Below, piece after piece: positions 1,618 to 63,275 of a stretch of DNA of 64,000 nucleotides. Made by a program: the position numbers and the translations under genes. The notes under the pieces are model-generated. The model made no database searches, had not been told where the DNA came from, and saw nothing but the letters and a program-made list of their open reading frames with translations. This stretch comes from Cyanidioschyzon merolae (taxonomy: Eukaryota). Position 1 is the stretch's first letter, and every line of letters begins with the position of its first letter. The stretch lies in NCBI GenBank assembly GCA_000091205.1, contig AP006494.2; one strand, written 5' to 3'.

Positions 1618-1879
1618 GTACTAAAAACATTCACTGTTTCGCTTCGAGATTATATGTAAGAAGTACAAACTTCCATGAACGACCAGGGTTTGCAAAGAAA
1701 GCCCTTGCCGAGTGAAGAAGAGTCCCTGGAGTACTCAACAGCGGTGCATACGCATACCAGGGATCGTGTCTGAGCAACGAAACGCTGAGGCGTAGCGGTG
1801 TCGGGATCCCCGACGATTAGCTGGTGGACCTCGCACCGCGCGATGCAATGCCCTCTGGAATGCTCGGTACCCTAAACGC

Positions 1880-2311: not shown

Positions 2312-2402
2312 ACATCATGGGTGTTACGCTTTCGTTCAGCTTGCGCTCGGGCAGCGACGGCTACGATGCGACGCTCGCGGGCGCTGACGAGATCTGGGCG
2401 AT

Positions 2403-20101: not shown

Positions 20102-20935
20102 GGGATGTTGGATTCTTTTGGATGTCTCAGTTTCATTTGTAGAGAAGGCTCATACGATCGCTGTCTCGAATCATTGAGGTCTTTTCCCAGGCACCTGGTG
20201 ACGTCCCTCTATTGGAAAAAATGGTATTTCACCGTTCCCGTGCGTACGAACTGTTGCTGATTCTATCGGGGGTAGAGCTGCTTTTCATTCCAAGGTGCTC
20301 TCCGTAGTTCAGCCCCATCGATAGAGTGTTTTCCATTGTGGACCAAAATTGATCGCTCCACTCGGCGAAACGCAGAAGCGTTCAGCATACGGTAACGCAT
20401 CGGGAGTACACGTTTTCTTTCTTCTGGAAGCCCTTCCCCATCCGGAAAACTCCTTACCTAAGGGCATAAAGAAGTTCGCTCATTTGAAAAATGAAAAAAT
20501 TTACGTGAATGCTATGCATCTGGAAGTCGAGGGTGCTGAAAGTTACTCATCGCCGGTTTTGGCGAAAATTAGGAAAAAAATCCTCTTCACGCCAACCACC
20601 AAGCGAGCAAGAGCAAGTGATGAAGAGCAAGAAGAAAAGAACAAGAGCGGATATGAGCGAGAAAAGGTGTTTGTCCGACGGGACAATGACGCGAATGTAG
20701 TGGCACAGAGGGTGCGAGTTCTAGCAATTCTCGCTTTGGTGCGTTCAACCAGCGGCAATGCACGCGAGGAGTCCATGAATCGTGACTTCAACGCCGCCAT
20801 CAATACCAGATGATACGCGGTGTTAAAGTCAAGACCCGAGGAGCTGACGAAATCGAACTTTGTATGGCAGCCTCTCAAGGCCACAGTGAGCAAGTAGAAA
20901 CTGAGGCCGATAGCAGGCGCCGGTCAGAAACCACA
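20102..20935 (+). pseudogene. Degenerate TnpB/Fanzor-like RuvC-nuclease gene remnant, copy 1, including a conserved roughly 120-nt 3' flank
   Basis: ORF 20349..20813 ends ...VRVLAILALVRSTSGNAREESMNRDFNAAINTR*; RDFNAAINT is the TnpB-superfamily RuvC-III motif. Upstream in other frames: a RuvC-I-like GMLDSFGCLSFICREGSYD at about 20105, and a RuvC-II-like NAMHLEVEG at about 20510. An in-frame stop lies upstream at about 20322. The 3' flank is homologous to the flanks of copies 2 and 3. Confidence 0.5.
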
Positions 20936-23900
20936 GGGAAGCGCCTGTGAGTAGGTTTCAGTTTACCCTACGGTGGTGGCATGTTTTCGCTCCGTTAAAC
21001 TTTTGGAAATGCTCAGTAATATCGAACTACAGATCACTATGAGATATCATGAATTCCCTGAAAAAAATCGTCTGCGTGTATGTGCACGGCATTCAAGTCT
21101 TGCTGGAAGGCTGAAACGCGTACCTGACCGGTGCCTTGCTCCCAGCAGGCACCGAATACACGCTCTCCTGGCCACTGATTTTCTGTATCACAAGCCTTCC
21201 AAATTTCAGCACAATCCCCGAAATGAGTACTGAACGAATCTTTCTCAAGTTCGGTCGCCCCAAAGTCGCTGGGCGCTTTGCAAGCACGAGGCGTTCTCGA
21301 TGCCGACCGAGGCGTTCAGGTTCCAATGACGAAAGCGCTCGAGCGTACCGTTGTCAGTGCAAGCACACCATACCAAGCGTCTAAGCGCTTCGATTGTCTC
21401 GCAATATGAATTTCAGTCTTCGAACAGGATACCATATCAGGTATATTGCTCCATTCTGTTCTCTTGTTCTCTATCTGTTTCAGTGAGCACCCGTGCTCAC
21501 TGATGCTTTTATGTTATCCTGAACGCCTCGAAGGGAATCAGACAGAATCGAATCCAGGACCTGTTCTACGACCTCGTCGACGGTACCGCATTCCAGCCTT
21601 TTCGCACTGCAACACGTCCAGCCCTGTGGGCTACCATCAAACGGAACGATTCGTCGGTCACTTGGTTTTCCAACGCATCATGCTCGTTGGCGAATGCATG
21701 CTTTCTGTCTCCATATAACAGATAGCGTTGGCGACCCCAGCGCTCTCCCAGGTATTCCAGCCAAAGATCGTCTCCGAGCGTCCTCTGGACGCACAAGTAC
21801 TCTCTAGACGAAGCGTACATAGCAATTCGCTCTGCGCAGTAGGGTCCACGGAGCGTCGGCAAGACTCTGTTCAAAGTCATTCCCCTTGCTTGTATGCCTC
21901 CTGGCGCCGATTATGTGCGAATGTCGTAAATATCGAGCCCAGGAAAAGTTGAGCAGCTTCATCTGCTTCTCGTTTACATCGTTGCCTGCCTCCGTGCCCC
22001 AGCCCTGGCGATATGGCGACAGCTGTGATGCCCGTCAACCCGAGATCTACACCCTCGTCGAAGTCTCTCTTGTCGTCTACCTTTAGCGGTTGATCATGAC
22101 TTTCGTTGCTCGACTCAGACCTGATTTTTTAGAGACTGAATGCAGTATGACGTTCCGTCAGTCTCCATCGTTTCTGCGAGCCTCTTTTCATTTCTGCCAT
22201 GTAATCGAGCAGCGTTGAACGAGCGCCGTCAAAGCTCCTCGTAAAGTTTTTCGGATGCTTCACGCTTTGTCGCAGAGGGACGATCTTGCTTCGCAGTGTG
22301 CTTTACTCGGCGAGGTGGCAGGGTTGTGGTCACTCTACTCCATAATCGATCTTTGTCTCCTGGAAAAATACGCACTGAGTGGAACGTTGGATTGGAACCT
22401 GGCTCGTCTATCTGTGTATTCACGTATATGGACAAATCCTCAAATCCTTGTTCGTAACCTTCCCCGTCGTGAACACGCCCAAGGATCGAAGCGCCTTATT
22501 CGGTACCCTCCCGCGCACCATGAGCAGTAGCGCAACACAGCATATTAAGGCTAATCGATGAAGAGAACGAAATGTCGAAGAAATTCCGTGTCATGGTTGC
22601 GAACGGCTCGTGAATTCAACTGTGAGCTCTAAAACAGAGTTCGGCAACAGAGCGCATACCTTCGACTGGATGCAAACTGGGCGAATGTGTCTGCGCGAAG
22701 AGCAGCTCACTGCCAGTATGCGCTGCATACGCCATGAGCGCTTTTAGTCATGGAACGCCACGTTGTCCAGAATAAGGGCGGAGGAGTGTGCGAAGCGGAA
22801 GTCACAAAGTGTGCCTCGACGAAACATGCGGTTTTGAACGATCCTATCTATTTGGCGACTGGCAGATGATCACAGACTGGCATCGCCGCTGGCGCGGATG
22901 TTGTCGGATACTCGCTTGTTGCTTCTTCACGATCAGCAGCCTTCCCTTCTTTCAATACACATATTGAGGTCTGCTTTTTCCCCAGAATGAATTCTCATTG
23001 AATGAGACCATCATTCGTCTTATGAGTTATAAGCGGTCGCAGATCAGTGTGTGAAATCTGTAGTGCATTTGCCAGCGCACGACCGTGTCGCAATAGAGGC
23101 GAGCATTTTTCTTCGTCCGTCGATGTCTCTTCTTCACCGCTCGAGTTAACGGTACGGACACTGCATATTCTGCGGCTGCTCTGGTTGTAATTGTTCGAGA
23201 ACACATGCATTGGAATGGATAGAGGACAAGGCAGTAATGTTCATGGAGTTTAACTTGTTCTTTCGCGGATACACGACGTTTGGAACGAGAACCATCAGAG
23301 GGGCGCTTCAACCACTTGCTGACCGCACAATGACTGGCCGCAACGAGTAATACCGTTTTTCGCGTGCCTGCAACGACAGGATCAGGTCTTTCCGCTGACT
23401 TTCTCCAATCCATTGGATATTTTTTCTGCTGAATATTTGCCAGGAAACCAAACCAAAACAAAAAGCACATTCTTATTCACGTGTTCGAGAATGCACTCCT
23501 CTAAGCATACTGCTTTAGCGAACAGTGGTTCAAGCACTGCTGCTGAGCTTGGTACTTGCAGCAGCGAAAAGGCGTTATTTACCTGTAAAGTGCGTTCGAT
23601 TCGAAGGAGGCACGAGGCTTGCACAAGCGCGTCCAGTGCGGATTCAGCGAGTCTGTTCAGATTCGGTGCATCGGTCACTAATCGAAACCATAGCTTTGTC
23701 CTTCGGTCAGGCTCGCGTGAGCGCAGAGCGCGAGGACCGCTTCGGCCTGAAAGGCTGGATCTAGCGGCCCTCTACGAGCGTCCACAACAACGACTCAGTT
23801 CCTCGAGGGGTCCGACTTCGATCCAGAAGTTTTCTCTTATTCGCCCCAGTGCAGTAACGGGAGACAGAGAGGAAGCGCGGCGACACGAAGATCGCACCAC

Positions 23901-43779: not shown

Positions 43780-43860
43780 TGTATCCCGTCGGCTGCGGAT
43801 CAGTTCTGGGCATTCTCGCGCATCGACTCATGTCGGATTCATATAGAACGGATCCATTAA

Positions 43861-44901
43861 CTCTGTCGCACACTCTAGCGTTTGGGCCTCGTTCCCTGGT
43901 CATGAATACCAGCACTTGCGGGTATTTTATGCAACTGCTCCCGCTTTCCTATCCCTATCTCTGACTTTAAATACGCTGGTGTCTCCTTTCCTTACAGCTT
44001 CGTTGTACGAAGACGAAGGATGTTGATCGTGAGATTGGAGCCCCAACTTCGCAGCCCCGATCTGTTGTGCAACTATGCCATGCACACCCGGGAGTTGCGA
44101 TCTACGGTTCGCATGCCACTTGCATCTCCCTAGTATACGGAAACAGTGCGCCCTTCACGGCTGCGAAACTTGAATATGGTCAGGGGTATCCCATGGTTCC
44201 CCGCTGGCCCTCCGAGCACCACTACATGGCGCGTGAACGCCCGTTTCATCGCTCGGTACATGCCCTTGACGGATGTAGGAGGATTGTATGGAAGCGTCGC
44301 TTAGCGTCTGCACCCGGTGGCCGTTCCAAGCGATCACGGGCTGCCTCTGGGTGATACGTGCTCCACTTACGTCCTCGGTGCACTGCATATGCAAACACGT
44401 GTAGTCGCATTTTTATGACGTGACTTGTGGAACGCATCGTTGTCCATCATGCAACAGGTATCGGGAGGAGAATCCAGGTTCGGGATCCAGTCCAGCACTA
44501 CCGATTCGTCTGGACTCCACTCCTGCAATGCAGAGTCAGACGCTGCACCGGCGGCGGTCGCTGTGATGACTCACGTCCGAGTCCGAGGCCACATCGACGC
44601 AAAATGAGGACTTGAGAGCGTCCGGGAGCATCGCCGCTGCGTCGAGTCATGCTGCCGCCACACGTCATTTTGTCGATGCGCGCCACGAGAAAACGACGCG
44701 TGTTTCCAAAGCAAGCGATTGGTTGGAGTGAAAGGTTCAATAAATTAGCTGAATGAGGTTGTGAGCAATTCGTCAACCGCCAATGTCGAGAATTTTTTGT
44801 CGTTCATCCAACGGAGCGAATCGCAGCGTCCTCGAGTTGCCCCGGAATACAATGATCAAAATCGTGGGGTGAACGTGATTCGAGCATGCCACAAGTAAGG
44901 G
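43861..44901 (+). repeat. Dispersed direct repeat, copy A (1,041 bp; roughly 99% identical to 61525-62565)
   Basis: Colinear match from ctctgtcgcacactctagcg... to ...cgagcatgccacaagtaaggg, with about 11 substitutions and no large indels. A weaker similarity continues for about 25 bp beyond the 3' edge. It contains only short ORFs that I cannot place (for example 44067..44354). Confidence 0.9.
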
Positions 44902-45214
44902 GAGAAGTCGAGTGGAGGCTCTTGTATAAAAATTCTATTGTGATCTCCGTTATCTTACGAACTCTTACCCGAGAGGCGTCGCGAATCATCTCAGTTCCTG
45001 TCACCAAACGCGTCCCAGCAACACGGAGTCGGACACGACACTTCAAATCGACGACAGAGCGTCCTAAAACTCGTATAAATCAGTAAACACCAACTGGTCG
45101 CACATCGGATCATGAGAATGCACATGTAAGAGTGAGCGAAAAGAACGAAGTGCAGAAACAGAGCGCCCAGTACAATGGACAATTTTCATTTGAAATAGCT
45201 CGTCGATGAAACAA

Positions 45215-46527
45215 AAGTTCATGTAAGATAAATGAATTCCGGCAGGGAGATGCTTCTCAGCCTTTTCGGTAGGCCCGCTGCTATTGGTTTGCGCTTCTCC
45301 TGGTAATCATCGAGCCTGAGAGGCTGCCCTACGATGTTGGCTCGCGTCAGCTCTGCGGGCTCGTCTCCAGCACCGCACACCGTCTGATATTGAAGGCCGC
45401 GTCAAAGTCCCGGTTCACAAACTCAACGCGTTTCTTTCTGTTGGTGTAACACACCAATTCAATGAGTCCTCGAACTCGTGCCCTCATTGCCATTTGTTCT
45501 CCTGTCAGATCTCTGTACTCTTGTAAATCCTCCGGGCTCCGCTGGCACTTTTCCATCTAGACCTCCTGATGTGTACACCCCAGCTCATGGTGCATATAGA
45601 ACGTTCGGAAATTCATCAATGGGTATTGTGACAAAACCGTGTGCGCACTTCTTATACGTTCTTGTCGTTGGAGCTGGTGTACACCCTTTTTTCGACATCC
45701 AGCGCCCTACTCCGTATGCTACTTCGAGCCTTTGATCCTTGTCCGCCTTGAGGGCGCTAAACTCACTGAAAAATTTCGTGAATGCACCCTCTTTCCTCCG
45801 TACAGTTTCATGCGCAGACGAGTCCACCGGGGCTTTGCGTACTCTTGCCACAACTCCTCGTCATGAGCAGCTTGAGTTTCTATGAATTCTAGAAAAGCTT
45901 CAAAGTCCGCTCCTCTGCTCGCCACCTGGCTGATCACTTCCAGGTGCTCCTTCACTGCTGAACTCAACGTCTCACTTTCCATCGTCGCATTCATTACTCC
46001 CTAGTCTCTATCGTATCTCGCTCTTTCGGACTTTAAGGAAACGTACGTCTTTTGGGGTAAGCTGCCGTCGATACGATATTCCCCATGCTTGGATGCTGCG
46101 ATGGTCATGATAGTCGTGTTCCCGGGGTACGGGCCGATTACGACAAAGGCGTTCTTGTCTATCTCCTGCGTCACAGGACCCGCCTGCTTTTTTTCATCGT
46201 GCTTTGCCGAGGGCGATATCGAAAACACAACAGGACGATCCGCCTTCAACAGCCGATCGTGTACACATATGGCTGTTCCATCGGTTTCGATCATCCCAGT
46301 AAATACCTTTTTCTTGCTCGTATTGAGACGTTTGAAATCGAAGATATTCTTCCAGTCCGTCTCTCGGTTTCCGCCGGTAACTCTGTTTTCCTTACATCGA
46401 ACTCCGGACAGATCTCCTTCATGATGCTGTAAATGGCGCTGGAGTCGATGGTCACAAAATGTGACTTGATGTTGCATAACGGAACGACAGTGAAGCGCTT
46501 CTCCATTAGGAAAGATATCCGTTCCAA
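45215..46527 (-). pseudogene. Degenerate TnpB/Fanzor-like RuvC-nuclease gene remnant, copy 2, with the conserved 3' flank
   Basis: ORF 45347..45556 ends ...MRARVRGLIELVCYTNRKKRVEFVNRDFDAAFNIRRCAVLETSPQS*, which is a RuvC-III motif homologous to copy 1 (RVRvLaiLaLV....NRDFNAAIN). A RuvC-II-like VKEHLEVISQ lies in ORF 45719..45994, and a RuvC-I-like [16 protein letters not shown] in ORF 46291..46527. The parts are separated by in-frame stops and a frameshift. The 3' flank (about 45215-45346) is shared with copies 1 and 3. Confidence 0.5.
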
Positions 46528-46771
46528 TGAACCTGCTTTTTTCTCAAACCCAGCTGCATCCCCGCCTTGCGTTCAAGTTCTCGCTCCGAAGAAAAAAGAA
46601 ATAGCACAGGATGAGGGGATAGCATCTTTTTCCATCTTTCTTCATATCTGATGCCTTTTCTGCAGGGTTGACACGCCCCAAGATTGCACCGTGCTCTTTC
46701 ATAGCCGCACGGATTACAGAAGCTTCATTCTTGCTTCTGCGTGATATCCTCTTGTCAACTAATTCGATCTC

Positions 46772-47412
46772 CTATTCATGCTGGCAATCGTTCGTGATGC
46801 CATCGATGATGGCCCGTATCCATTTGCAAGAGAGGCCCGGGTAGCGTGTCAAGACGCAGCGTATCATGAAGCGTTTGAGATTCACAATCATATGGCTATT
46901 CCGGTTCGTGAGGTCCTTCATCGCCCCGTATTCGTAAATAGGCGAGTCAGCTTTGTATCGAGTGTCGTTGACGCGGTATTCGGCGTAATTTTCGCGCAGG
47001 GCATGCACTCGCTCATCTCTCCACAACAGGTCCCTTGTACCAAGCATCAGGTGGCTGAGAAAGCTCTTGTTGAAAAATTGTTTCGGATTCTCGACTGTTT
47101 TTATGTCCGTTACATCCTCTTCCAGCTCCTTCACCAAATACATTGATCCAGTAGACGCTTTCCAAGTTCAAATCGAGTAAGACGTCACATGTTTATGATC
47201 CACTCTTGCATCTTTTGCTTATAGGGATCCTTGATGTAACCTCCACGAAAAGCTTTGACCACCACCTCGTCGTATTGTCGTCTGCCGTCTAGCTTTCGAA
47301 GGCCGGCCTCCTGCCTCCGATCCTTCGTCTTCTCCTGTTCCGCTTTCCTCGGCACTGTTTTTTCGTCTCCGGCAACTGGTGACATCAGACTACCTGGATC
47401 CTCAGCTTCCAT
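46772..47412 (-). other. Two adjacent coding-like ORFs (47412-47185 and 47143-46772); possibly the N-terminal part of the Fanzor-like copy 2, or an unrelated small gene
   Basis: The first ORF is basic and NLS-like (DEKTVPRKAEQEKTKDRRQEAGLRKLDGRRQ). The second is coding-like and 123 aa. They lie immediately 5' of the copy 2 remnant on the same strand, and the total of about 690 aa would fit Fanzor1 size. Speculative. Confidence 0.25.
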
Positions 47413-48556
47413 GTCCTTAACTTTCCTTTAATTATTTCTGAAAACGAACGCTCTTTGAATGCTTCTGCTATAAATCGCGAAAATCACTTTGATGCCCTAA
47501 TCTGAGAATGGAACACAACTGCATTGAAAAACGATACTTTGCTATGGGTGTAACGCAAATATATGTTGTACGCCAGAGCAACATACTGATAATATGGATC
47601 GGGTTTCTCTTCAACGGGGAAATGCGCTTCGTCTCTCATGCCGGCCAGGTATGAAGGTGCGAGTATATACCGCGCTTTATCGAAAAAAGAACAGAAACTG
47701 ACTACCAACTAGAAACTCGATAAAAACTTCGTTCCAGCACTGAGATACCCATTATAATTGGGAGCATTTTCTGTATTTTCGAAAGTCTTCCTTCTAGACG
47801 AGGGTCCCGCGAGTTGGACGATTCTGCCGGGCTAGTGCATCATGATCCCCAGTGGCGGATGCTGTAGTTAGACCTGGGCAGCTCATCCGAAACGCAATTC
47901 ATTCTGGGGCTATGAGCGGTTATGCCGTGTCTGGGCATCGTTCAGGTCTCAGTGGTCTCCTATCACATGGCTTTGCACCGCTGCATAGAGTACGTCTATT
48001 TGCACAAATTGGAGGCTCTCATCTTGATGATGGATCACGATTCTGTGACTAATGAACCACATCTTGAGCCGAGGCCTTCAGTGGTACAGCAATGCCGATC
48101 TGTATCCGTGCAGCACCGCAGCACCGGAATAAGCGCTATAGCGGGTGCAGGAAAGCGGGTATTCGGTGCACGATAGATCATACAAAACAACCAGTATATC
48201 CGAGAGGAACTACGGATGATAGAACCTCGAGGTGGGACGCAGCTTTATGGACGCTCCCGAATGCCAGTATCCATCCCGCACGCTGGGCTCCGTAGTCTAC
48301 GGAAACGAATCGCCAAACCAAAAATTCAGCAAAAAATCCTCAGGACAAGTCAGTACAAATTTATCAATAAAGATACTAAATGGAACCTGCCGCTGGATCG
48401 CTCCTGTCTGAAGCGCTGACGAAGCACTTGATTCGCAGCGTTGCGTAGCCTCCCCGCTGAGACGCAGTGCAGCGAAGCAGGTCCGTGGCTCCTACCTACC
48501 CGAAATAGGGTTCCTGTTCCGGTTAGGAAAGAGTGAAGGTTGGGTAAGCAGAATTC

Positions 48557-50482
48557 ATGAACGTTTTCGAGGAGGAAATTGCGAGAGCGGTGGCTCTTAC
48601 CGAACGGGCAGTGCTGACGCGGGAGCCGCGCCTCATCGCCCGTGTCCTGCGCTCGCTGGGGAAGCTAAGACGGTGCTGGAACGGAAGACTCTTTGAGCAT
48701 CGTACCAAGAAACTTGAGGCCCTTGTTGCATCTGAAATCATTGCGGTTGATCTCTTTCCAGAGGACGCCGAGGCGCTGAAAGAGGAGCAAAGAAAGAAGC
48801 AGCGGGCACGTCAAACGTCCAGTACCGGCGCTGAGCAGACCGGCACCGACTCGACGAAGACGGGTCAGAAAACAGGAACGCCCGACGAAGCATCAGAGAC
48901 ACCAGTCGAAGAGACTAACGGTAAATCCGAACGAGAGCTTGGCGCTGTTCAGCGTTTCGAGTACGCGGTGAAGGACCCGGTGCTCGCTGCACAGCACGCG
49001 CATGCCGCACTTCGCCGGCTACTGGAGCGGTTGGAGCAAGGCGACCCGAGCGCACACAACGCAGTCTTGCTCGAAGATGTAGATGCGGCACTAGAACCGC
49101 TCTTGTCACGTAACCAACGCGCCGCCGCTGCGGCGAAGGGCCTTGGCGTGGTGCAGCCTTTGGCTGCTACGCGGTCCGAGGCTAGTATGATCTTGTCGAA
49201 CGGGGTTTCGACGGATTCGCAGCCAAACGAAACAGCTGCTGCTGGACTAACGAAGCAAAATGCAAACGCTCGCCAAATGTCTGGAGTATCGTGGCATGCG
49301 CTTCAACCGGAGAGCCTCGTGCTTTTGCATCTGCTTGTCGTCTACTACCTGCTCGACGCACATGGTGACCATAAGCTGCAGCTCCGTGCCGTGGACTGCG
49401 CGGATCGCCTGATTTCGCTCTTGGATCGAAGTCCTCGGCGACATACCATGGACGAAATCGCAGCACGCTGCTACTATGCTTTTACGCTGGCCTACGAATG
49501 CGTTGGACGTCTTTCGGAATGCCAACCGCGCTTGCTGAAGGCTTATCGCACTGCTTGCGTTCGTCGCGATCACGCTGGTCAAGCCGTGCTCTTGAATCAG
49601 CTGCTTCGCTCCTATGTTCTGGAACGGCGCTACGCGCAAGCGGATCAATTGTACAATCGCGCTCCATTTCCCGACATTCGGAGCAACAGTCAGCTGGCTC
49701 GCTATTTCTACTACATCGGACGAGTGAAAGCTATACAACTGGATTACACAGAGGCATTTCGTTGCTTGAATAACGCGCTGCGCAAAGCGCCTCAGCACAT
49801 GGCGACTGCGTTCCGGATAACGATTCTGCGATTGCTGGTACTGGTCCAGTTGCTCATGGGCGAAATTCCAGAGCTCCAAGTATTTCTTGGAGAGCGCTAC
49901 GCTCCTGATGCTGCTGTATTTCGGCGAGCCATGTACCCTTACTTGCAGATTGCAAACGCAGTACGTCGCGGTGATCTCCAACGTTTTCAGCAAGTACTTG
50001 AGGAGAATGCCACCTGCTATGAACAGGACGGCAATGGCTATCTCGTTCGGCGACTTCGCCACAATGTCATCAAGACTGGACTTGCTCGCATCGTGGCTGC
50101 CTACGCCCGCATTCCTCTGAAGGAAGTTCAGGAGATTCTGGGCCTGGATGATAGCTCCAGCACCGAGAATGTGGTGGCGAAGGCCATTCGTGATCGGGTC
50201 ATTCGGGCAAATATTGATCGGGATCAACAGTGTCTCGTGTCGGCGAGCCAAACTGACCAGTACCAAGGTCGCGAGCCGGCACGTATGTTCCATGAACGGA
50301 TTCAGTTTTGTATGGACCTCCATGAAGAGGTACTTCGCGCGATGCGCTTCCCAGACGACAAAAGAAACGAAGCCAACCTCGAGATCTTGCGCGAGATGCA
50401 ACGCGATGAGGCCAAGATCGAGCAGGCGCTCGCTGAAGGAGCAGAACCCGGCGACGAGGACGATACCGATGATATCCTCTAA
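48557..50482 (+). CDS. RPN3: 26S proteasome regulatory subunit RPN3 (PSMD3; PCI domain)
   Basis: [91 protein letters not shown] is near-identical in pattern to PSMD3 [59 protein letters not shown]. ATG at 48557 verified. Confidence 0.9.
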   Translation: [641 protein letters not shown]

Positions 50483-51685
50483 TAGTGCTCAGCTATGACG
50501 TATAAATGATTTCGCATGGTATTCGAGAAGCACACCAGAGGGTCCTGCATCCATGCCGTGCGAAATGCATGGTGACTTCGGCGTTGACCGCACGCCTATA
50601 TTCAGAGCAATGCGGTCTGGAGCACAGCTGCAGTCGCGCGTTTTTGTTGGCTTGGTTTTTTGACGGGCTTTCGGAAGAGAAATCTATCTTTTAGAGTGGA
50701 GAAAACTGGCGGAAAGCTTTTAGGGTGTCATTGCTAGCTGGCGAGAAATGGCCTGACTTGCTCAAGCCAGACATTTTACGGTCAGCAACTGGATGAACCA
50801 ATGTGCTCTTGGTGCCTATTCTGAACGTTGCGTGCCGAAAACGGGGCAAACGGAACCCAGTAAACACATGGTTATCTGCTGATCAATCCATTCCATTGCA
50901 TACGTAATCTGGGAAACACCACAACAGAACGCATAGTTTGTGATACTTCCGTGCCGTTGGTCCCAAACGATGATGAAATGGTGTGGACGGACAAGAAAGA
51001 AAGTACTTTTCTCTTGATGATCGACGAGATCTGAACAACATATGACCGATTTCGTAGTAAGAACGGAACCGCGTACCACAGGAGGCACTAGTCTTTGTCT
51101 TACGTGGCGAGAGTTTATCCGGGAAAAGTGGTAGACCTGCATATGTGTACTGAACTAAAGACAAATCCGATGTTCGCAAAGAAGAGGCAAACGAGCATTC
51201 CGAAACCATCAGCACCAGTGGCGATGCTATCCTATGGTCGTCAACAAGTCGCCAAAAGGATACGATCGTTCTATAGCGCATGCTTCATCGACGCTTTGTG
51301 CGACATTATCTTCGCATACTCCGCTAGTCTGCTCTCAGAGTGCGTATCATTCCGCAACCCAGAAGTATTTGAGGACTATGCTGGTTAGATTGGTGCTCAG
51401 CTGATCTCTGTGCCAGGCTATTCGCGATGGAGCACACCGGTCGAAGGCGAGTCCTCCTATGCCGAACGTCCTTTCTATGCTGAAGAATCAATAGACGGGT
51501 ATTTCGCATTTTATCGAAAGCGAAAGCTACGGGACGCTAGGAATGATCGAGCAGCTTCGTACTCGAGGGAGGCTCATCTGGCATTCCTCGCCTCGACGTA
51601 GCTCGCTCAGCAAATATCCGCAGGAGCTCTGGACGCAGCTCTGCAAGCTGTCCAGATTCTTACGGAATTTATCCATCAAACTTTC

Positions 51686-53035
51686 GTGCTTGAACACAAC
51701 GCATGTTCGAGACAGAAGATGCAGCACGGCCTGACCGTTGGACCAGAGATTTGCACATGCGCTTCGCGGAAAATTCTCGACGCTCCGCAGTGCGACGTTG
51801 CCGGTCGAAGCGTCTCCAGCACAGGTGTCAAAAAGGTTCAAACACGCCTGAAAATCCTAAACTGTATATTGTTCAATGTCGAGGGCGTCGTGAATTTCGC
51901 CTCGTGGGCGTTGCACCCGCAGCACACTGACCCAGACATATGGGCTCTGGAGGAAGGAACTCTTGGCGTGACAACGGGCGCGAATGACGAGCTGTTGCCA
52001 AAAGAGATCAAAGAGGTAGCGAGCATCGACGAGATGTTGCAGCCAGAGCGAGCGTCGCTTCAGATCATCGGATCTTATCGTGTTGCTCTTGATCTCGGAA
52101 CGATGGGCGTCGTATGCAAAGGACGCTTCAAACATGAGGTCTGCCTTCCATTGACAAGCCGTACTATGACGTTTTCCTGAACAAAGCCCTCGAGAGCAAA
52201 CAGGATGTTCGCCCCGATGCCGAGCGCTCGGATCTTGCTCAGGCGTTTATTTAATCTGGTATCTATGTGGCACTTCAAGACCCTGCGGATCAGTGTAGAC
52301 ACTTCTGTATTGTACGGAATGACCTGTTCAATGCGGCACGGCTACTCTCTTGAAGCAAATATAAAGCTTTCGAACAAATTCGCAAGCAGCATTGGCGGAG
52401 ACGATCCAAGTTCCTCGTTTACGAGGGGGGATTCGGAACCGAGTCTCTTTCCAGGAGGTGCGCACTCGCCAACTTGTTCAATATTCTCGAAATGGAAATG
52501 ACCGATAAGCCGCGTCGCTCTTATTGGCAGCGAATGGCGCTGCCCGTGCTGTATTCCACGAAAGCCGCACCCCGACTCTACCGACGACAGCGACAAACGT
52601 TTGCAGGAATCGATTCTGTACGATCTCTGTCGATAAGTACAGGGCGCCGGATACCTCCCATGACCGGAGCATATGACCACGCTGAAACTGGTACAGAAGC
52701 AGAGTCGAAACCGAACCGCAGTCACGAAACGGTCGACTCTCATTTGAGCTAACTCCAGGTATCGAGACAATTTGAGTTTACTGCCCTGTTAAAATGTGAT
52801 TGCGCAAGCAACCAAGCGCACAAGCATATGCTGCATCGAGACCTGAACGCCTCGATCAACATTGCGAAATGTGTCGTGCTGCAGGAGCCTCAAACGGCAC
52901 TGTGTCGATAAAACTTTCGATGGAATCTTCTCGGGCTCCTTACAGGCGTTCTGTTGAAATGGGTAAGACTTTCAATGAGAAACAAAAGTATCAGCCATTA
53001 GAGGGGCGATTCCTTGCCCGACTGTATCCGGGCAC
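51686..53035 (+). pseudogene. Degenerate TnpB/Fanzor-like RuvC-nuclease gene remnant, copy 3, with the conserved 3' flank
   Basis: Hand translation of 52753-52911 gives ...LLKCDCASNQAHKHMLHRDLNASINIAKCVVLQEPQTALCR*, a CxC remnant plus the RuvC-III motif HRDLNASINI. Its tail KCVVLQEPQ is homologous to copy 2 RCAVLETSPQ. A RuvC-II-like FNILEMEMTDKPRRSYWQRMALPVLYSTK in ORF 52474..52752 aligns with copy 1 NAMHLEVEGAESYSSPVLAKIRK. A RuvC-I-like YRVALDLGTMGVVCKGRFKHE lies in ORF 51686..52180. The three parts sit in different frames and are separated by stops. Confidence 0.5.
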
Positions 53036-54184
53036 TGGTATGAACCTGGTCAGCAATCCAGCAAGGCCTGGACGCCGTCTCTCTATATTCGGGGAACGAG
53101 TTTCCCGAGCGACTGGTGAACGACAATCCGAATCCGTTCTGCCATACTACTTAGCGTGCAAGGACCGAGCGTCCACGAAACTGGTCGTCGAGTGGAACCC
53201 ATCGCTTTGAGTACATACGCTCATGGATGGCGTGCGGAAAGCACTCGTGCGCTGCCGGCCCTGTGCAGCATTCATGAGCGACGCATCGCTTCTAATGCTC
53301 TCGCCTCCACGAACCAGATTGGAAGCACTCGTGCTCTGCGGGTATCGTCTTACACCCACGAGAACCCGACCCTGACAGAATGGTGGAAGCAGCAGCGTCC
53401 ACCGCAGAACGATAAACGCACATGGTGTCGCACGAAAGACGCAAATGATCGTTTCGAACGACGTTTGTGTGCTCAGGATCGTCTTGCGAACATCTGTTGC
53501 GAAACCCTTCCCATATACCCACCCGGTTCCATATCCAGAGCATGCCTCTAAGCAGTGCAGAGCTGTAACTGCAAGCGCGCCCTACACAAACACCCGTGGT
53601 ATCTTGCAACGATCAACAGTCGCTGCCGCCTTCGGATGCTTCTTGATGGCACGAATCGAGCAGCCGAAGCGAGCTTCACTGCTCATCCGCGCTTAGTGAG
53701 GTCTCTGCATACACGTGATCCGCTAAACGTTGTTTTCATAGATGCATGTAAAGCGCGTCCACCAGGACCTGGACATGCCCCGCGCCAAAAAGTCTCCGCG
53801 GATTGCGGAGCGCTTTCTGTGAGCTCGCCAGCGACAAGCGCTTCTTGTTGCAGAGTCATGCTGTACTAGGTCTCTTTATTCGTGTGGCGTTGAGCGTGAG
53901 TACGCTTAAAACAGTACCGAACTCGCCATGAGGTTCGCTTGTACACAACGCGCTCCGGTTTCGCGTGGAAAGCTTTATCGCCGGATCTGCATCGAACGCA
54001 GCTGGGCGCCGGTAGAGGGCGCTCATCTCCATTGCCGCCAGCGTCTATGATCCATTGCACATGCAAACTGGCACGCTGTCCAGTCCAGGTAGGTTCCGAC
54101 GCTGTACGCGGCAGGCAGGCAGTTTGGACACTACGAAGGCAACGACCGTCCGAAGCGTGCATCGAAACCACGATAGGTTCGCGT

Positions 54185-56326
54185 TCACACAACGGGTAGC
54201 TCATCCTCTAGATCGGCGTACGAGAACAAAAAGTCTTGCCTCACTCTTTGACACCACATTTGGTGATCAAAGTAGACATATGACCCTGATTCATAGTCAT
54301 CGGTCGTGAACCGGGGCTCTTCATGGCGCTGGAACCACGTCAAGTATCGTTTGTGGAAACGCCAAGCATGGCGTTTCAACTCAAGAGCAGCGAACAACTG
54401 ATGCCGTGGATTCTGTGGGAAGAAGAATATGAAGAACAGTGTGTCTGGATCGAGACGCTCGTACAGCTCTGGACTGTCCAAAGCTGCCAGAGGTGACTGC
54501 GGAAACGACCCGTGAACCGGAAACGGATTTCTAGGCTCATACCGAACTTGTTCTCGTTGCAGGGGCGCTGCAGCAGATTTGTTCTGGCGGGATGCTCCTA
54601 TTCCCGGGTTGGTACCGTTGGCTGAAGGCGCTGTTAGATAGAGTGCACCTTCTTCTAGTTGGCGCAGTGCTGTCAGCAGGGTTCGCGAGGCGATAGGGTC
54701 CGAGTCCACCAGTGCGGCATCGCCTGCGAGAAGCGCTGCTTCAAGTCCGCTACGTTCAGATGCATCCCGACCGGGGTCTTCGGGCGCCATCGATGCTGTA
54801 GCCGCTGTTGCAAATGCGTCACCACGGGAGCCCTGCAGATGGCCAAACTGCTGTGCCAATGGGACGCTTGCTCCGAGTCCAGCTGCCAGGGAAGACACAT
54901 TCATAGACACTGCGGATCCCTCGGGTGCACAGGTTCGCGAGTTCATCTGGTCTCCAGATTTCGATGGGTACGGGGACCGGAAAGGCGTTGCGGCGGTTGC
55001 CACCGTAGCTCCTGCACTCGTCCGAGAGTTCGACTCCAAGGACCCGCGATCAGCGTTGTCGACCTTAGAGACCATCACCGCCGCTAGAGCGTTAGCATGT
55101 GTGTCTCTTCCAGGTGGCAATCGTTGAACACTCGTTGGCATCTGGGGAGTGCTCTGCAACCCGAAAGAACCAAGCAAAGTGCTTGGATCCGTGGGTGTTG
55201 GCGTCTGGGGTGCAGCGCTCTGCTTCGATAACAGTACCGTAACAGGCTGTTGCTGGTTTGCCCAGGCCGAAGTCACTGGTCCGGCGGTGCTGCGCGGTCG
55301 ACCAGGACCTCCGGATGCGCCACCATCCGAGCCCAAAGCTCCGCCAATGGAAAGGTCTTCTTTGGATGCTGCCGCTTTGTTGTTCTCCTGTTCCGATGGA
55401 GGTCGTTTCGACTCGGATACGTCGCTGTTTTTTCGTCGCGAATCCTCTACGGGTGTCTGCGCTACACCTGCGGCTCCTGGTGTCGATGAATCTCGAGGTC
55501 GCCGTCCATCGTCCTCAGATTTGCGCTTCGCCTCACTTTCTTTTCTTTCAGCGTTTTCTGCTTCACTGGGCTTGCTCTCCGGCGCATGCTCCGTATCCTC
55601 CTTTGGCTTTGGAATATGAGAAACCTGAATCTCAACCGGGACCTCGAGCGTAAGCGCGTCGTATATACCCTCATCCTCCAGAAATCCATCTTCCGTATTC
55701 GCCTCGACATAGTACTCAACACTGTCTCTGATTTCATTCACGTCGTCACAATCGGCCGCATCGTTATCGAGCGCCCTAAGAATTCGCTCGAGCATCTCTA
55801 TATGATACTGGTGTCGCGCGATTTTCGCTCGCAGAGCATCCACAGCCATATGATCAATCTTCTTCTTCTTCGCGCTACTGACGGAAGCCTCAATATCCGC
55901 TTCGCGTTCTTCGATTTGAACTTTGAGCTTCTCGATGCAGTCTCTGACCCATTCGCGAACCTCGTTCTTCGACTTTTCAAGGGGGTCTGCCCGGTCCTGT
56001 GCCAGACCTTCCTTGCTGAACGCCTTCGTTTTCGTTTCTCTCTCACAGACTTTAAAAGCTTCCATTTTCTCTTCAATCTTCTTCCGGGCAACATCGATTT
56101 TGCTTTTGTCTTTGATTGAGGGGTCCGCTTGCCACACTTTGATTTGATCGCGAAGACGTTGCAGTTTTTTGATCTGCGACTTCAAGTCCGCTTCAAACTT
56201 ATCCCTTTGTGCAAGGTTTTGCGCAGCGTACACCTTATCCCAGATCTCGTTGAACAGGTCCAGACCTTCTTCGACTTTCTTGAGCGTGCGGTCGATTTCC
56301 GCTTGAAGTTTTCTGTTTGTTGCCAT
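54185..56326 (-). CDS. CNOT3: CCR4-NOT transcription complex subunit 3 (NOT3/NOT5 family)
   Basis: The N-terminus MATNRKLQAEIDRTLKKVEEGLDLFNEIWDKV...QIKKLQRLRDQIKVWQA matches CNOT3 [31 protein letters not shown]...EIKKLQRLRDQIKTW. The C-terminal NOT box is present (LFFIFFFPQNPRHQLFAALELKRHAWRFHKRYLTWFQRHEEP). The tracked ORF starts at a GTG at 56359; the ATG is at 56326. Confidence 0.9.
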   Translation of the reverse strand: MATNRKLQAEIDRTLKKVEEGLDLFNEIWDKVYAAQNLAQRDKFEADLKSQIKKLQRLRDQIKVWQADPSIKDKSKIDVARKKIEEKMEAFKVCERETKTKAFSKEGLAQDRADPLEKSKNEVREWVRDCIEKLKVQIEEREADIEASVSSAKKKKIDHMAVDALRAKIARHQYHIEMLERILRALDNDAADCDDVNEIRDSVEYYVEANTEDGFLEDEGIYDALTLEVPVEIQVSHIPKPKEDTEHAPESKPSEAENAERKESEAKRKSEDDGRRPRDSSTPGAAGVAQTPVEDSRRKNSDVSESKRPPSEQENNKAAASKEDLSIGGALGSDGGASGGPGRPRSTAGPVTSAWANQQQPVTVLLSKQSAAPQTPTPTDPSTLLGSFGLQSTPQMPTSVQRLPPGRDTHANALAAVMVSKVDNADRGSLESNSRTSAGATVATAATPFRSPYPSKSGDQMNSRTCAPEGSAVSMNVSSLAAGLGASVPLAQQFGHLQGSRGDAFATAATASMAPEDPGRDASERSGLEAALLAGDAALVDSDPIASRTLLTALRQLEEGALYLTAPSANGTNPGIGASRQNKSAAAPLQREQVRYEPRNPFPVHGSFPQSPLAALDSPELYERLDPDTLFFIFFFPQNPRHQLFAALELKRHAWRFHKRYLTWFQRHEEPRFTTDDYESGSYVYFDHQMWCQRVRQDFLFSYADLEDELPVV

Positions 56327-58477
56327 AGCACGGACCTCCTTGAAGACGAAGAACTCCACCGATATTCATATAAAACTAGCGAGAGCCGAGGCACCAGCTC
56401 CTACCACAGCGCCACTCTCTAGTCCGTTGCGTCCAGTGCAAAAGCTGCAACCGCGACTTGCAGACCGAAAAGTCCAGTGCCTCGACACGGTACGATGTTA
56501 GCGAGCGCGTATGGGCGGCAAGCATCCGTTTGAAGACTATGGCACTTAAATGGACAAAGCAGTCGATTCTGCAGTTTTGTTTCGCGCATGGTTGCGCTGG
56601 ATCGTCGAGATTGCGCGAGCGGGGCACTTGTCGACGAAACGCGTCCAGCGTAGTCAGCGCTTCGCAGGACATGAAGCATCACTGGACGGCATGGAATGTT
56701 TTTCGCCATGTGGACGGAGTGCGCGAAACGCGGGTGTTTCCATCGCAGCAATGATGACCTCGCTTCAATGAAATGACGCGGCATTTGAAAACTTTTGTCC
56801 AGAGGTTTACACATCGACCGTGCGTGTAATCGTTCGAGGAGCAGCGACGTCACTTGTGACTTTTGTGCAACCGATGCGCCGTTGAATTCGAATGACGCGA
56901 CGCTGTTTCGTTCAGAGGATATTCGGGTTGCTCTCTGGAGAGAGCGTAGGGCGTCGCAGGTTCGAAAACGTCGCATCAAGTCTTGAGCATGGCTTGACAT
57001 GGTACGGATACGGCTGCATCATCAAGCATGAGATGAGCTGCTGTGTGTTCGCGATGCAGGATACATGTGGTTTGGAAAATATTTTAGGTCGGCCGCAGCT
57101 GGTGAAATTCTGGACCGTGACCCAATGAGTCTGTGTTGGGAGAAGTGCAACGAGCATGTTTCTGCAAATCCGTATGGGAGGAAATCGCCCGATACGGAAG
57201 AAACCGGAGGATAAAGACTGACGAAAGTATTCAAGCCCTTGGTCAATACCAAATCGGTGTGTTAGAAAAAGGTCAGCACCGTCCCGAATGGCGACGACTG
57301 CGTTCATCCTGCGCCTTTCCAAACTAGCTACCATACGCGATGCGGCATTGCTCGCTAGACACAGCTCTCCCTGCAGCTGAATGCCCCGATACCACGTAAT
57401 TCGTATCTCGTCTTCCAGTCTACATCAAATGGACTCTTTTCGAGCTTGGAGCGCCCGCCGTCCTCCTTGTGCACCAACGATATACCCATTGGCGAATATG
57501 CAGCACCGGCAGCGGGTGCCGGGCACTGCCGAGCACCCAGCTGCGGCACAACGCGACTCTGCAACCAATCAGTACAGAGATGCCTCGCTGATTTCACATG
57601 CCTCCGCTTCTACTTCGAGACACTGCACTCGTGTATGAATGCCCGGTGCTTCCACGCATTCGAGATTCTTCCAGATTCCAGGGCACCAATCTGCATCTTG
57701 ATGAATCTGCATGGACACTTTCATCCGGTGCTGCACGCATGCACGGATGGATACGTTTCCATGCGTGCACAGACAGCACGCATGGACAGCACGCATCCGC
57801 ATGCTGCAGTGCCGCTTATGAACTGCGTTGAGCTTGTAGCACCTGGGTATGCTCTTTTACGTTAGGAGCTGCTCGCTTAGAGAAACTCTACCAAGGTAAC
57901 CATTCTGGGCATCTGGGTTTTTCTATGTCGCTTCGAGAGACGGTTTTATGCTCTGGCCAAGTACGACATAACGAATGCTTGGTGTTCCATCGAGTCGGAA
58001 GCGCGCTTTGTGCAGCGTGTACAGCAACGGCGCGCTTCTTCGTCGTAGTTTCGGCGCTCGTCAAGCATGACGAACGTCCGCACACTCTAACGTACCGTTT
58101 GTGCGCACCTGCCGCGTATAGCTATAAACCGTGTGCTGACGACGAAATAGTCACGCTGGTGGCAGCGACTCGGCAGCGACCTCTGCAGCGTGCGCCGCAC
58201 TGCCCGTGCGGAGCCTGCGTTCGCGCCCCGCCGCTGGGATTGCTGTTCAGTGCGTAGTCAGCAAGCGAGAAATAGACGGCCTCGCACGTCCACACTTGCC
58301 GGACGTTTGCGAGCTACTGGGCCTGCAGCTTGCTAAAAACACTCTGATGGTCGGTTTGAGTGACTTTTGATCTCGTATCAAAGGCACATCCATTGCCTAG
58401 AGCTTCGGGGTGCGTTCCGGTCCCGATAAGCGCCAAGGCGTTTATAGCGAGCGGGACGCGGCAAGCGGGTGTGCTCA

Positions 58478-60231: not shown

Positions 60232-61524
60232 GTCCGATCGTAGACGACATGTCTAGCGATCTCAAGCCGTCCTCCGTGGTGAGGCGGAAGCAGCGATGCA
60301 GGCCTGCGCCTCGCAAAGACTCCGGTAATGACCATGCTGCACAGCATCCTGGATACCTGGTGACGCAGAGGCGGTCGCTGCTGCTCCGGGAATGCACCAT
60401 AGCGAACACGCGCACAGCCGTTCGCAGCGGCGCTGGTCGAATACAACGCCCACCTGCACGGAAATAACACGCTGGAGAAGCACCAGATGGAGTTACCAAC
60501 AGGCTGCGAATTCGCGGTATCCGTTGTCGTCGTCGCACCTGAGACGTGTTCTGCTCATTGACATGCCCGAACGGAAGCATCCGGACTCGATTTCGTTTCT
60601 CCAGTGCACACCGCAGCTGTGAGATCGTTCCCAGCAGGCCATGAAGCTCGTCAGTCTTCGCATCCGCAGCAGTGCTTTAGGCTAGCAGGTCTCAGCGCAA
60701 ACGGCGCTGCGCGTTATGCTCCACTCGACGTCGTTCTAGGCTGCGCGTTGGCGTCAACTGTCGTCGATGTCGGTGCATCGTGCGGCGTCGCGATGTCAGC
60801 CTGTGGCACCCGCCTTGCACCCGTTAGCTTCATTCGAATTCACGCGTGTCTGGGACACAGCTTTGTAGGCAGCGGCGACGAGTCCGGTGGCGCTTCGGCA
60901 CTGCCAGCAGCAAGCTGCGGTGCCGATGCCATTCCTCCCCATGGCGCCAGACGCATCGCTCGTGAGTGCGAGCTTGCACCAGACCGGGTTGGGGACTGCT
61001 TTTCCTTCTGCCTGCTGTTTTGCTCTATGCATTTTCCGCGTTATTCACTATTTCCAATTTCTGTATCTGGAAACAGTGCAGTACCTCGCGGGCATGACGG
61101 ACGCCGCAGCAGTTTTTTCTGCTCGGTGTTTCGCAGGTTCAAGACGCAAAAGCCTTCGGTTTGCTCTGGTCTGCGCCCCAGTTCAGTCTGCGTAAACCTC
61201 ATAGGCTCTGCTTTCGTTGACACCCGTTAGGGCACAAGGTAATACCTTTCAAGTTTCGGAAACTTGTTGCGCATAGCGGAACGCTTTTCCTGTCGCTGTG
61301 GCAAAGCAGTGTCAGGGATTTCGCCGAAGATCAAAACCTTACCAACCAGCTCCTGTTTCCATCGCCCGAAACAGATCCGAACCGGGATCCGGTACGAAGC
61401 ACGTTCGCAACCTGGATAAGAACGCAAGGCCTAGTTAGATGCAGTGCGAAGCCAAAAAACGTTGTTTCTGTTCGCTCCTAACGTATTCCAGCAGTCTCAG
61501 ACGATAACGGAACAGGTCTTCTAG

Positions 61525-62565
61525 CTCTGTCGCACACTCTAGCGTGCGGGCCTCGTTCCCTGGTCATGAATACCAGCACTTGCGGGTATTTTATGCAACT
61601 GCTCCCGCTTTCCTATCCCTATCTCTGACTTTAAATACGCTGGTGTCTCCTTTCCTTACAGCTTCGTTGTACGAAGACGAAGGATGTTGATCGTGAGATT
61701 GGAGCCCCAACTTCGCAGCCCCGATCTGTTGTGCAACTATGCCATGCACACCCGGGAGTTGCGATCCACGGTTCGCATGCCACTTGCATCTCCCTAGTAT
61801 ACGGAAACAGTGCGCCCTTCACGGCTGCGAAACTTGAATATGGTCAGGGGTATCCCATGGTTCCCCGCTGGCCCTCCGAGCACCACTACATGGCGCGTGA
61901 ACGCCCGTTTCATCGCTCGGTACATGCCTTTGACGGATGTAGGAGGATTGTATGGAAGCGTCGCTTAGCGTCTGCACCCGGTGGCCGTTCCAAGCGATCA
62001 CGGGCTGCCTCTGGGTGATTTGTGCTCCACTTACGTCCTCGGTGCACTGCATATGCAAACACGTGTAGTCGCATTTTTATGACGTGACTTGTGGAACGCA
62101 TCGTTGTCCATCATGCAACAGGTATCGGGAGGAGAAACCAGGTTCGGGATCCAGTCCAGCACTACCGATTCGTCTGGACTCCACTCCTGCAATGCAGAGT
62201 CAGACGCTGCACCGGCGGCGGTCGCTGTGATGACTCACGTCCGAATCCGAGGCCACATCGACGCAAAATGAGGACTTGAGAGCGTCCGGGAGCATCGCCG
62301 CTGCGTCGAGTCATGCTGCCGCCACACGTCATTTTGTCGATGCGCGCCACGAGAAAACGACGCGTGTTTCCAAAGCAAGCGATTGTTTGGAGTGAAAGGT
62401 TCAATAAATTAGCTGAATGAGGTTGTGAGCAATTGGTCAACCGCCAATGTTGAGAATTTTTTGTCGTTCATCCAACGGAGCGAATCGCAGCGTCCTCGAG
62501 TTGCCCCCGAATACAATGATCGAAATCGTGGGGTGAACGTGATTCGAGCATGCCACAAGTAAGGG
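61525..62565 (+). repeat. Dispersed direct repeat, copy B (1,041 bp; roughly 99% identical to 43861-44901)
   Basis: Same unit and orientation as copy A. Differences include ttgggcc/gcgggcc, cgatct/cgatcc, gcccttg/gcctttg, gatacg/gatttg, aatcc/aaacc, gagtcc/gaatcc, ggttgg/gtttgg, aattcg/aattgg, gtcgag/gttgag, ccccgg/cccccg and tcaaaa/tcgaaa. Confidence 0.9.
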
Positions 62566-63275
62566 AAGCTGAACTTTGGAGGTTCGCACACAAGTACTGT
62601 ACAGTGATATATATTACTTTACAAATCCTTCGCTACAGGGCGTCACATTTCGTTTCGATTCCCATGACGTAAAGCATGTCAGCAACACCGCGTCCAAAAC
62701 GTCAATCCGAACACAACACCGAGTATTGTTCACCTACAAATGAATCCGTAAGCCTTTCTTCCTGTCCTTGGCATGTCAAGTCCGTACATCTAGAAAAACG
62801 TCGGATTTTATTCTCAAGGCATGAACAGAGCCAGCAGTTTAGCGTTTCGTTTTCATCCGAAACGAGTACTGCAGTGCGATCAAGTGCAGCACCAGCATGT
62901 CAGGCGTCCATAGCAGACCCCTTTCTAGCCATACTCCTCGAAAGGATGTTGCTGCATACGCAACGCTGTCGATTCCGACACCTTCATGGGTGCCGCATGT
63001 ACCAGCTGAGCAAAAGTGCAACCCCACAGGAAACCAGGTGCACGCCATGGCGCCTTCTGTACAAGGACGCGCGATTCATCGAAAAGCCAACATATAAGAA
63101 AAGAAAAATGCGCATAATCGGAGAACGCTGGCCTAAGTAAACGTTTTGTCAATGGAAAATCGAAAAGCCAACGGGCGCCCCTGGATTACCATGCATCGTC
63201 GTCGTTGTGAAAGTTTCGCACTGTGGCGTTTCCTTGGATACTGCTCGGCGACGATTCATAACTTTAGTGTATGTC

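Follow-up and report, generated by a model that had tools for sequence, protein, structure and literature searches.

Bao and Jurka (2013, Mobile DNA 4:12; PMC3627910) described in Cyanidioschyzon merolae a Fanzor1 protein, CMe-1, which is carried by a 3169-bp transposable element, CMe-1A, that exists in ~150 copies about 80% identical to their consensus, has no terminal inverted repeats (TIRs), and was assigned neither a target-site duplication nor a class. The same report lists elements from Pythium ultimum, such as PUl-1, PUl-2 and PUl-4, in which a Tc1/mariner-type transposase gene is followed on one strand by a Fanzor1 gene, with TIRs of 24-33 bp and TA duplications (supplementary table, PMC3627910). 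Here we consider a 64,000-nucleotide stretch of C. merolae DNA (assembly GCA_000091205.1, contig AP006494.2), called the window below, in which the gap between the genes RPN3 and NOT3 contains on its plus strand the remains of a Fanzor gene that we refer to as copy 3. Copy 3 is a dead copy of the transposon family already known in C. merolae (Bao and Jurka 2013; PMC3627910). The RPN3-NOT3 region as a whole is, very probably, the inert wreck of a single composite transposon, Tc1/mariner-like in one part and Fanzor1 in the other, which belonged to an older branch of the lineage of CMe-1A.

To judge from sequence comparisons, the plus strand at 51.5-52.9 kb is a genuine, if decayed, Fanzor1 pseudogene. 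An earlier sequence-only reading of the window had recognized at this place a decayed Fanzor/TnpB-type RuvC nuclease gene homologous to other copies nearby, and this has been borne out by a chain of hidden Markov model (HMM) matches and by nhmmer and tblastn searches. The better-preserved minus-strand copy in the window (45.2-47.4 kb) was stitched together and used as a query, which retrieved 42 intact relatives, and a family HMM built from the intact relatives was run over all stop-to-stop segments of the window. It matches copy 3 in five collinear pieces on the plus strand, three of which are individually significant:

52229-52324, plus strand: HMM piece, E 0.002
52521-52664, plus strand: HMM piece, E 4e-5
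52762-52887, plus strand: HMM piece, E 3e-4

The summed collinear chain scores 55.0 bits, far above the maximum of 8.4 bits reached in 500 dinucleotide-preserving shuffles of 51400-53300, and the similarity is therefore not compositional. At the DNA level, the CMe-1A consensus (taken from supplementary file 2 of Bao and Jurka 2013; PMC3627910) matches by nhmmer in two segments, nt 2536-3010 with 52457-52931 (E 4.7e-13) and nt 1108-1765 with 51519-52205 (E 6e-4). At the protein level, the N-terminal half of copy 3 is matched by residues 68-333 of CMe-1 (tblastn, E 1e-4) and by residues 68-344 of P0063, the Fanzor of a metagenomic element discussed below (blastx, E 1.4e-13), and the C-terminal half is matched by the intact relative P0001 (tblastn, E 1.7e-6). 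The similarity to TnpB/Fanzor, the significance of which the earlier reading had marked for checking, is clearly significant. A Pfam scan of the raw pieces and of the intact relatives gave only PF07282 (Cas12f1-like TNB), below threshold, with E 0.037 on copy 3.

The family to which copy 3 belongs is Fanzor1, as assigned from profile comparison and a predicted fold. An exhaustive profile search produced 1483 relatives, and an 82-sequence alignment derived from them matches, as a profile, the solved Fanzor1 proteins PpFz (E 2e-22), SpuFz (E 3e-15) and GtFz (E 8e-8). An AlphaFold model made from this alignment (predicted local distance difference test score, pLDDT, 84.8) has the same Fanzor1 structures as its best Foldseek matches (E 1e-13 to 1e-9), with Cas12 and TnpB coming next. 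With a shallow 20-sequence profile, nothing was found in the PDB, and the AlphaFold model based on it was unusable (pLDDT 31.6). The intact relatives P0001-P0042, L001, L002 and L006 carry as their sole precomputed Pfam label PF26935 (DUF8286, weak), where profile and fold comparison identify them as Fanzor1. They share with SpuFz1 (8GKH), PpFz (9CF0), GtFz (9CER) and TnpB (8H1J) the fold and the D-E-D residues of RuvC, at amino-acid identities of 13-16% even for these intact sequences. Copy 3 differs from all of these in having lost RuvC-I and the RuvC-II glutamate, and therefore cannot be a nuclease.

The detectable relic, with its transposase and Fanzor parts taken together, extends over 50682-52931. 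The sequence-only reading had begun it at 51686, which is too far downstream by ~170 bp for the Fanzor part and by 1 kb for the element as a whole. Its parts are:

50682-51532, plus strand: DDE_3 (Tc1/mariner/IS630-like) transposase pseudogene, directly 5' of the Fanzor relic and on the same strand
51519-52324, plus strand: N-terminal (REC-like) half of the Fanzor1 pseudogene, about residues 68-334 of CMe-1, with stops and frame switches
52325-52456, plus strand: internal deletion junction, with ~130 bp in place of ~630 bp of consensus (nt ~1907-2536)
52457-52931, plus strand: C-terminal RuvC half of the Fanzor1 pseudogene (nhmmer E 4.7e-13; HMM E 4e-5 and 3e-4)
52462-52488, plus strand: ALANLFNIL, matching AFANFFNQL, just ahead of RuvC-II
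52521-52649, plus strand: RuvC-II strand, LLAANGAAR...ISVDKYRAP, matching VVAYGAGRW...IPVDEFRTS
52750-52752, plus strand: in-frame TAA
52792-52803, plus strand: KCDC, in the place of the second half of the zinc ribbon
52834-52863, plus strand: RuvC-III, HRDLNASINI, with the aspartate kept at 52840-52842

The order of motifs in CMe-1 (AFANFFNQL, VVAYGAGRW, VDEFRTS, NRDFNAAINI) is the order found in copy 3. Near the end of the N-terminal half, RILLRRLFNLVSMWHFKTLRISVDTSVLYGM (52229-52324) aligns with the HMM stretch avLlgkrfnvvplcnikshfvtidsrvlygim (E 0.002). Only ~130 bp then separate 52324 from 52457, where the consensus has ~630 bp, and we conclude that the part coding for RuvC-I was lost in a deletion of ~500 bp; to judge from the flanking alignment coordinates, the sequence for the TDG strands went with it, as did that for the RuvC-I aspartate (GADPGNTN). 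The RuvC-I aspartate (GxDPG) is missing from copy 3, and profile positions 430-470 have no positive HMM score anywhere across the Fanzor relic (51519-52931). Beyond the junction, a 2-nt insertion after ALANLFNIL shifts the frame ahead of the RuvC-II strand, and the glutamate of VDEFRTS has become a lysine at 52635-52637, so that the motif reads ISVDKYRAP. In the wider family a conserved LLWC stands where copy 3 has KCDC; copy 3 lacks the first Cys pair, and PF07282 reaches only E 0.037 here. In the DNA alignment and the three-frame view, there are at least five frame switches and several in-frame stops, where the earlier reading had counted two switches and one stop, and the longest open frame in the relic has no more than ~190 codons.

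Several details of the sequence-only reading hold. The segment 52753-52911 does translate to LQVSRQFEFTALLKCDCASNQAHKHMLHRDLNASINIAKCVVLQEPQTALCR followed by a stop, the TAA at 52750-52752 is present, and RDLNASINI (52837-52863) is real, with no second strict match to this motif anywhere in the six-frame translation of the window. What had been taken for RuvC-I, ALDLGTMGVVCKGRFKHE (52085-52138, ALDLGTMGVV), aligns instead with nt ~1654-1700 of the consensus, around residue 250 of the REC-like N-terminal half, and the segment of another copy (copy 1) with which it had been compared, MLDSFGCLSFICREGSYD (20108-20158), is part of a DDE_3 transposase relic and hence is not homologous to it. Of the proposed RuvC-II segment, FNILEMEM...SYWQRMALPVLYSTK, the beginning stands, since ALANLFNIL is homologous to AFANFFNQL; the remainder is out of frame, and the true RuvC-II is in another frame. 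Its comparator in copy 1, NAMHLEVEG, is the start of the Fanzor open reading frame (ORF), MEKEVEDPG, and the residue-by-residue alignment thus paired non-homologous parts. Several other placements were tried and dropped. FNILEMEM had been placed at residues 319-335 (tblastn E 3.8) or, by eye, at 551-567, and nhmmer puts it at AFANFFNQL; ERPFYAEES, a candidate for the Fanzor N-terminus, is covered by the transposase alignment; 'GGDDP' (52388-52408), a candidate for RuvC-I, has no statistical support; and DFVVRTEPRTTG (~51036-51071), another such candidate, is a chance match (E 7) within the transposase relic.

The partner transposase that the earlier reading proposed to look for is found directly upstream of copy 3, as a DDE_3 (Tc1/mariner-like) pseudogene. 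The query was the transposase of the metagenomic element L006, whose Fanzor, P0063, is a distant relative and the best match of both copy 3 and copy B (the latter a further relic, described below). The L006 transposase itself matches Pfam DDE_3 with E 2e-23. In tblastn searches it matches 50682-51095 and 51158-51505 with a combined E of 2.4e-19, and an HMM of 120 independent DDE_3 homologs matches, in collinear order, 50760-50849, 51158-51382 (E 0.0055) and 51395-51532 (E 2.5e-5). The catalytic motifs have decayed: VSVDETSF now reads VLRGESLS, LLDNVAFHHS reads LLSECVSFRN, and YSPWYNPVEG reads YSRWSTPVEG (51419-51448). The DDE triad is accordingly not intact (VDET to LRGES, LLDN to LLSE), only PVEG is retained, and stops are present. 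In the window there are three strong tblastn matches of the L006 transposase (in copies 3, 1 and B), each directly 5' of a Fanzor relic on the same strand, and the 120-homolog HMM confirms all three. The same layout occurs in the L006 contig, where the DDE_3 transposase is directly upstream of P0063, and in the metagenomic contigs L007 and L008, where DDE_3 is followed by Fanzor1, for a total of three intact elements; it is also the layout of the PUl elements of Pythium ultimum (PMC3627910). P0063 is a better match than CMe-1 for both copy 3 and copy B, with the qualification that their amino-acid identity to L006 is only 25-32%.

Fanzor-derived pieces in the window number four by tblastn and nhmmer (20472-20970, plus; 22219-21275, minus; 48313-45241, minus; 51519-52931, plus), where three had been counted. 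They had also been ascribed to one family; two of the pieces are CMe-1A-like (78% and ~69-70% identical to the consensus) and two are much older (~47-51%). The relics other than copy 3 are:

19628-20970, plus strand: copy 1, composite relic, a DDE_3 pseudogene followed by an internally deleted CMe-1A-like Fanzor
19628-20454, plus strand: copy-1 transposase relic (tblastn E 1.3e-14; Pfam DDE_3 E 2e-5; also matched by the HMM)
20472-20583 and 20696-20970, plus strand: copy-1 Fanzor, consensus 869-975 and 2828-3109, ~69-70% identity
21275-23419, minus strand: copy B, composite relic absent from the earlier reading, a DDE_3 pseudogene followed by an old Fanzor1 pseudogene
23419-22589, minus strand: copy-B transposase relic (tblastn E 1.2e-11; HMM E 3.7e-13)
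22219-21275, minus strand: copy-B Fanzor1 pseudogene (tblastn with P0001 E 8e-18; Fanzor HMM E 1.6e-15)
45241-48313, minus strand: copy 2, near full-length CMe-1A element, 78% identical to the 3169-bp consensus

The nhmmer matches of the copy-1 Fanzor have E 1.9e-24 and 0.0065, and copy B still displays RuvC-I (GVDLGLTG). Copy 2 is matched by blastn over 3013 nt at 78.4% identity, by nhmmer over consensus 6-3089, and by the family HMM; in six-frame view it has a Fanzor ORF with a few stops and frameshifts, and it has no transposase. Copy 1 and copy B lie tail to tail at 19.5-24.5 kb, the one ending at 20970 (plus) and the other at 21275 (minus), and the two of them sharing a single 5-kb gap indicates that the same intergenic space has been inserted into repeatedly.

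Copy 3 and CMe-1A are residents of the same genome and members of the same Fanzor1 lineage, alike in DNA (E 4.7e-13) and alignable along the 734-amino-acid protein. They differ in that copy 3 is only ~51% identical to the consensus (nt 2536-3010), against a family norm of ~80%, and is internally deleted and dead, unlike the CMe-1A consensus; in that copy 3 keeps a conserved Cys (LLKCDC) where CMe-1A has lost it (LLALVST); and in that CMe-1A has a 905-bp non-coding leader where copy 3 has its DDE_3 transposase relic. By nhmmer, no similarity to this leader is detected in copy 3, and no trace of a transposase was found in the leader of the published consensus. Over ~460 aligned bases, identity to the consensus is 51% for copy 3 and 47% for copy B, and copies 3 and B are 56% identical to each other; the two also share three indels, the conserved Cys that CMe-1A lost, and P0063 as their best match. 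In these comparisons copies 3 and B look like members of an older, transposase-bearing branch and not like worn-out copies of CMe-1A, which is the least secure step in our argument. Since copy 1, which is nearer to CMe-1A (~69-70%), carries a transposase as well, the sequences further suggest that CMe-1A may have arisen from a composite resembling copy 1 through replacement of the transposase. A mixture of young and old elements is not peculiar to this window, as the metagenomic contig L001 has an old Fanzor relic (4429-5118, minus strand; nhmmer E 1.3e-5, HMM E 1.3e-6) ~5 kb from an intact CMe-1-like Fanzor.

On its left, the relic is preceded by RPN3, a 641-amino-acid ORF at 48557-50482 that is 100% identical in homology searches to the C. 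merolae 10D protein, and its right-hand neighbor is the Not3/CNOT3 homolog at 54185-56359 (minus strand). The gap between them, 3702 bp long, has a GC content of 0.519 and is thus only marginally poorer in GC than the window (0.547) and barely the AT-rich gap of the earlier reading. RPN3 and Not3 are also adjacent in Cyanidiococcus yangmingshanensis and in a related metagenomic genome, both of which preserve the gene order RIC1, poly(A) polymerase, longin, TFIIE-beta, AAA ATPase, RPN3, Not3, LCM and DEAD helicase. The gap measures 784 bp in C. yangmingshanensis and 978 bp in the metagenomic genome; neither has a Fanzor or CMe-1A signal, and the C. merolae gap, when aligned with them directly, has no similarity to either. 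The excess of 2.7-2.9 kb in C. merolae fits one element, and the insertion is most simply regarded as specific to the C. merolae lineage. The proposal that the gap houses an insertion is upheld by these comparisons, in that the gap appears to have been enlarged by a transposon; for the companion proposal, that such gaps are long-standing landing sites, the empty Cyanidiococcus gaps leave little support. Insertions into a compact haploid genome simply survive in the spaces between genes.

The history we propose would begin with a composite DNA transposon of ~2.3-2.9 kb, in which a DDE_3 transposase gene had downstream of it, on one strand, a Fanzor1 gene for a eukaryotic RNA-guided nuclease of the RuvC-based TnpB type, and which would have come from the older, transposase-bearing branch of the Fanzor1 lineage that also yielded the transposase-less CMe-1A. 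In the living element, the transposase would have performed cut-and-paste transposition, by analogy with its characterized relatives, and the Fanzor would have cut DNA by way of a transposon-encoded guide RNA, as in characterized TnpB/Fanzor systems. The element would have inserted just downstream of RPN3, most simply after the split between C. merolae and Cyanidiococcus, and neutral decay would have followed: degradation of the transposase catalytic motifs, loss of ~450 bp around the transposase/Fanzor boundary, loss of a further ~500 bp that included RuvC-I, change of the RuvC-II glutamate to lysine, and accumulation of at least five frameshifts and several stops, as a result of which neither protein could be encoded now. 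The relic is expected to have no present function, because both of its genes are broken, the catalytic residues are gone, there is no Rfam or tRNA match, and there is no conservation across species.

Among other explanations, the one that deserves most attention is that copy 3 is a very old copy of the transposase-less CMe-1A, next to which an unrelated insertion left the transposase relic. The significant DNA similarity of copy 3 to the CMe-1A consensus, the ~150 copies of this element in the C. merolae genome (PMC3627910) and the presence of a bona fide CMe-1A element only 3 kb away all speak for it. We consider it improbable nonetheless, as copy 3 is far below the ~80% identity that is normal for the family, is nearer to copy B and P0063, and still has an ancestral Cys that is gone from the consensus, and as the leader, itself without a transposase trace, is undetectable where the transposase relic stands. 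Moreover, copy 1, copy B, L006, L007 and L008 all have a transposase next to their Fanzor. This arrangement, with three instances in the window and three outside it, makes it unlikely that the transposase and Fanzor relics of the RPN3-NOT3 gap are simply two separate insertions that happen to abut. A continuing role for the relic, whether as a source of guide-like RNA, as a regulatory or 3'-untranslated-region element of RPN3 or NOT3, or as a domesticated protein fragment, might be imagined from position only, since the relic is directly downstream of RPN3 and probably lies partly in or near the 3' end of that gene. This we regard as most improbable, given that no open frame exceeds ~190 codons, the catalytic residues are lost, Rfam and tRNA models have no match in the gap, the orthologous gaps of the relatives show no conservation, and the divergence is close to saturation, as neutral decay predicts. 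That the resemblance to Fanzor arose from composition or chance, with no real remnant present, has virtually nothing left to recommend it: the sub-threshold Pfam score and the spurious nature of several of the residue alignments in the sequence-only reading might be cited in its favor, but it is refuted by the shuffles and nhmmer, with 55 bits against at most 8.4 and E 4.7e-13, and by the five collinear pieces on one strand.

Several observations do weigh against a single composite element from an older branch, and need to be set beside those that favor it. Pfam DDE_3 has no direct match on the transposase relic of copy 3; its matches are confined to the L006 protein and the relic of copy 1. 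Neither TIRs nor a TA duplication, both features of the PUl elements, could be recognized in copy 3 or in L006-L008; inverted pairs in the gap are at the level expected by chance (the best that brackets the relic is 20 nt long with 75% complementarity, 50607-50626 with 53468-53487), and no inverted pair brackets the element in L006-L008. The ends of the element, and hence its Tc1/mariner mechanism, are for this reason deduced from the transposase alone. The difference between 56% and 51% identity, on which the assignment of copies 3 and B to their own branch partly depends, comes from ~460 poorly alignable and nearly saturated bases. Finally, the contrast with Cyanidiococcus may reflect a loss there instead of a gain in C. 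merolae. With these points taken into account, a single composite transposon, now dead, is still the reading that we prefer.

The C. merolae genome is famously compact. Copy 3 alone is of little consequence; what it adds is an adjoining Tc1/mariner-type transposase relic and evidence for an older layer of elements, more divergent than the ~80% identity of the published CMe-1A family, from the existence of which it follows that transposon-derived DNA in C. merolae is probably under-counted. Three independent relics within 33 kb pair a DDE_3 transposase with a Fanzor gene, making Tc1/mariner-type a likely classification for the C. merolae Fanzor1 lineage, which was left unclassified in 2013 (PMC3627910). 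Whether an autonomous Tc1/mariner-type (DDE_3) transposon, extinct here and surviving only as relics such as this, was the ancestor of this entire lineage, CMe-1A included, is a question on which we find the balance about even. If it does, CMe-1A would be a derivative that has dispensed with its transposase and kept its Fanzor, and that has nevertheless reached ~150 copies, either with the help of a transposase acting in trans, itself now dead, or through a Fanzor-dependent route. The empty orthologous gaps of Cyanidiococcus offer a clean presence/absence marker for dating.

The window contains several other repeated or transposon-related sequences. At its left edge (214-537, minus strand) is another relic of a DDE_3 transposase N-terminus, which matches HMM positions 4-106 with E 6.6e-10. 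A sequence of 1047 bp without a long ORF is present twice, at 43858-44904 and 61522-62568, in the same orientation at a distance of 17.7 kb, with 98.6% identity, and a small part of each copy resembles DDE_3 (44525-44412 and 62189-62076, minus strand; HMM E 0.003 and 0.01, respectively); the repeat is probably a young element, non-autonomous and derived from Tc1/mariner. A plus-strand fragment at 10349-10628 matches CMe-1A solely in its 5' leader (consensus nt 6-285, ~75% identity, E 5e-37), and may be a copy of TE-N2_CMe, a short element described as having the first 635 bp of CMe-1A in common with it (PMC3627910). At 1878-2322, between ORFs, self-blastn reveals a tandem array of ~6 units with a period of ~71-72 bp and identities of 94-97%.

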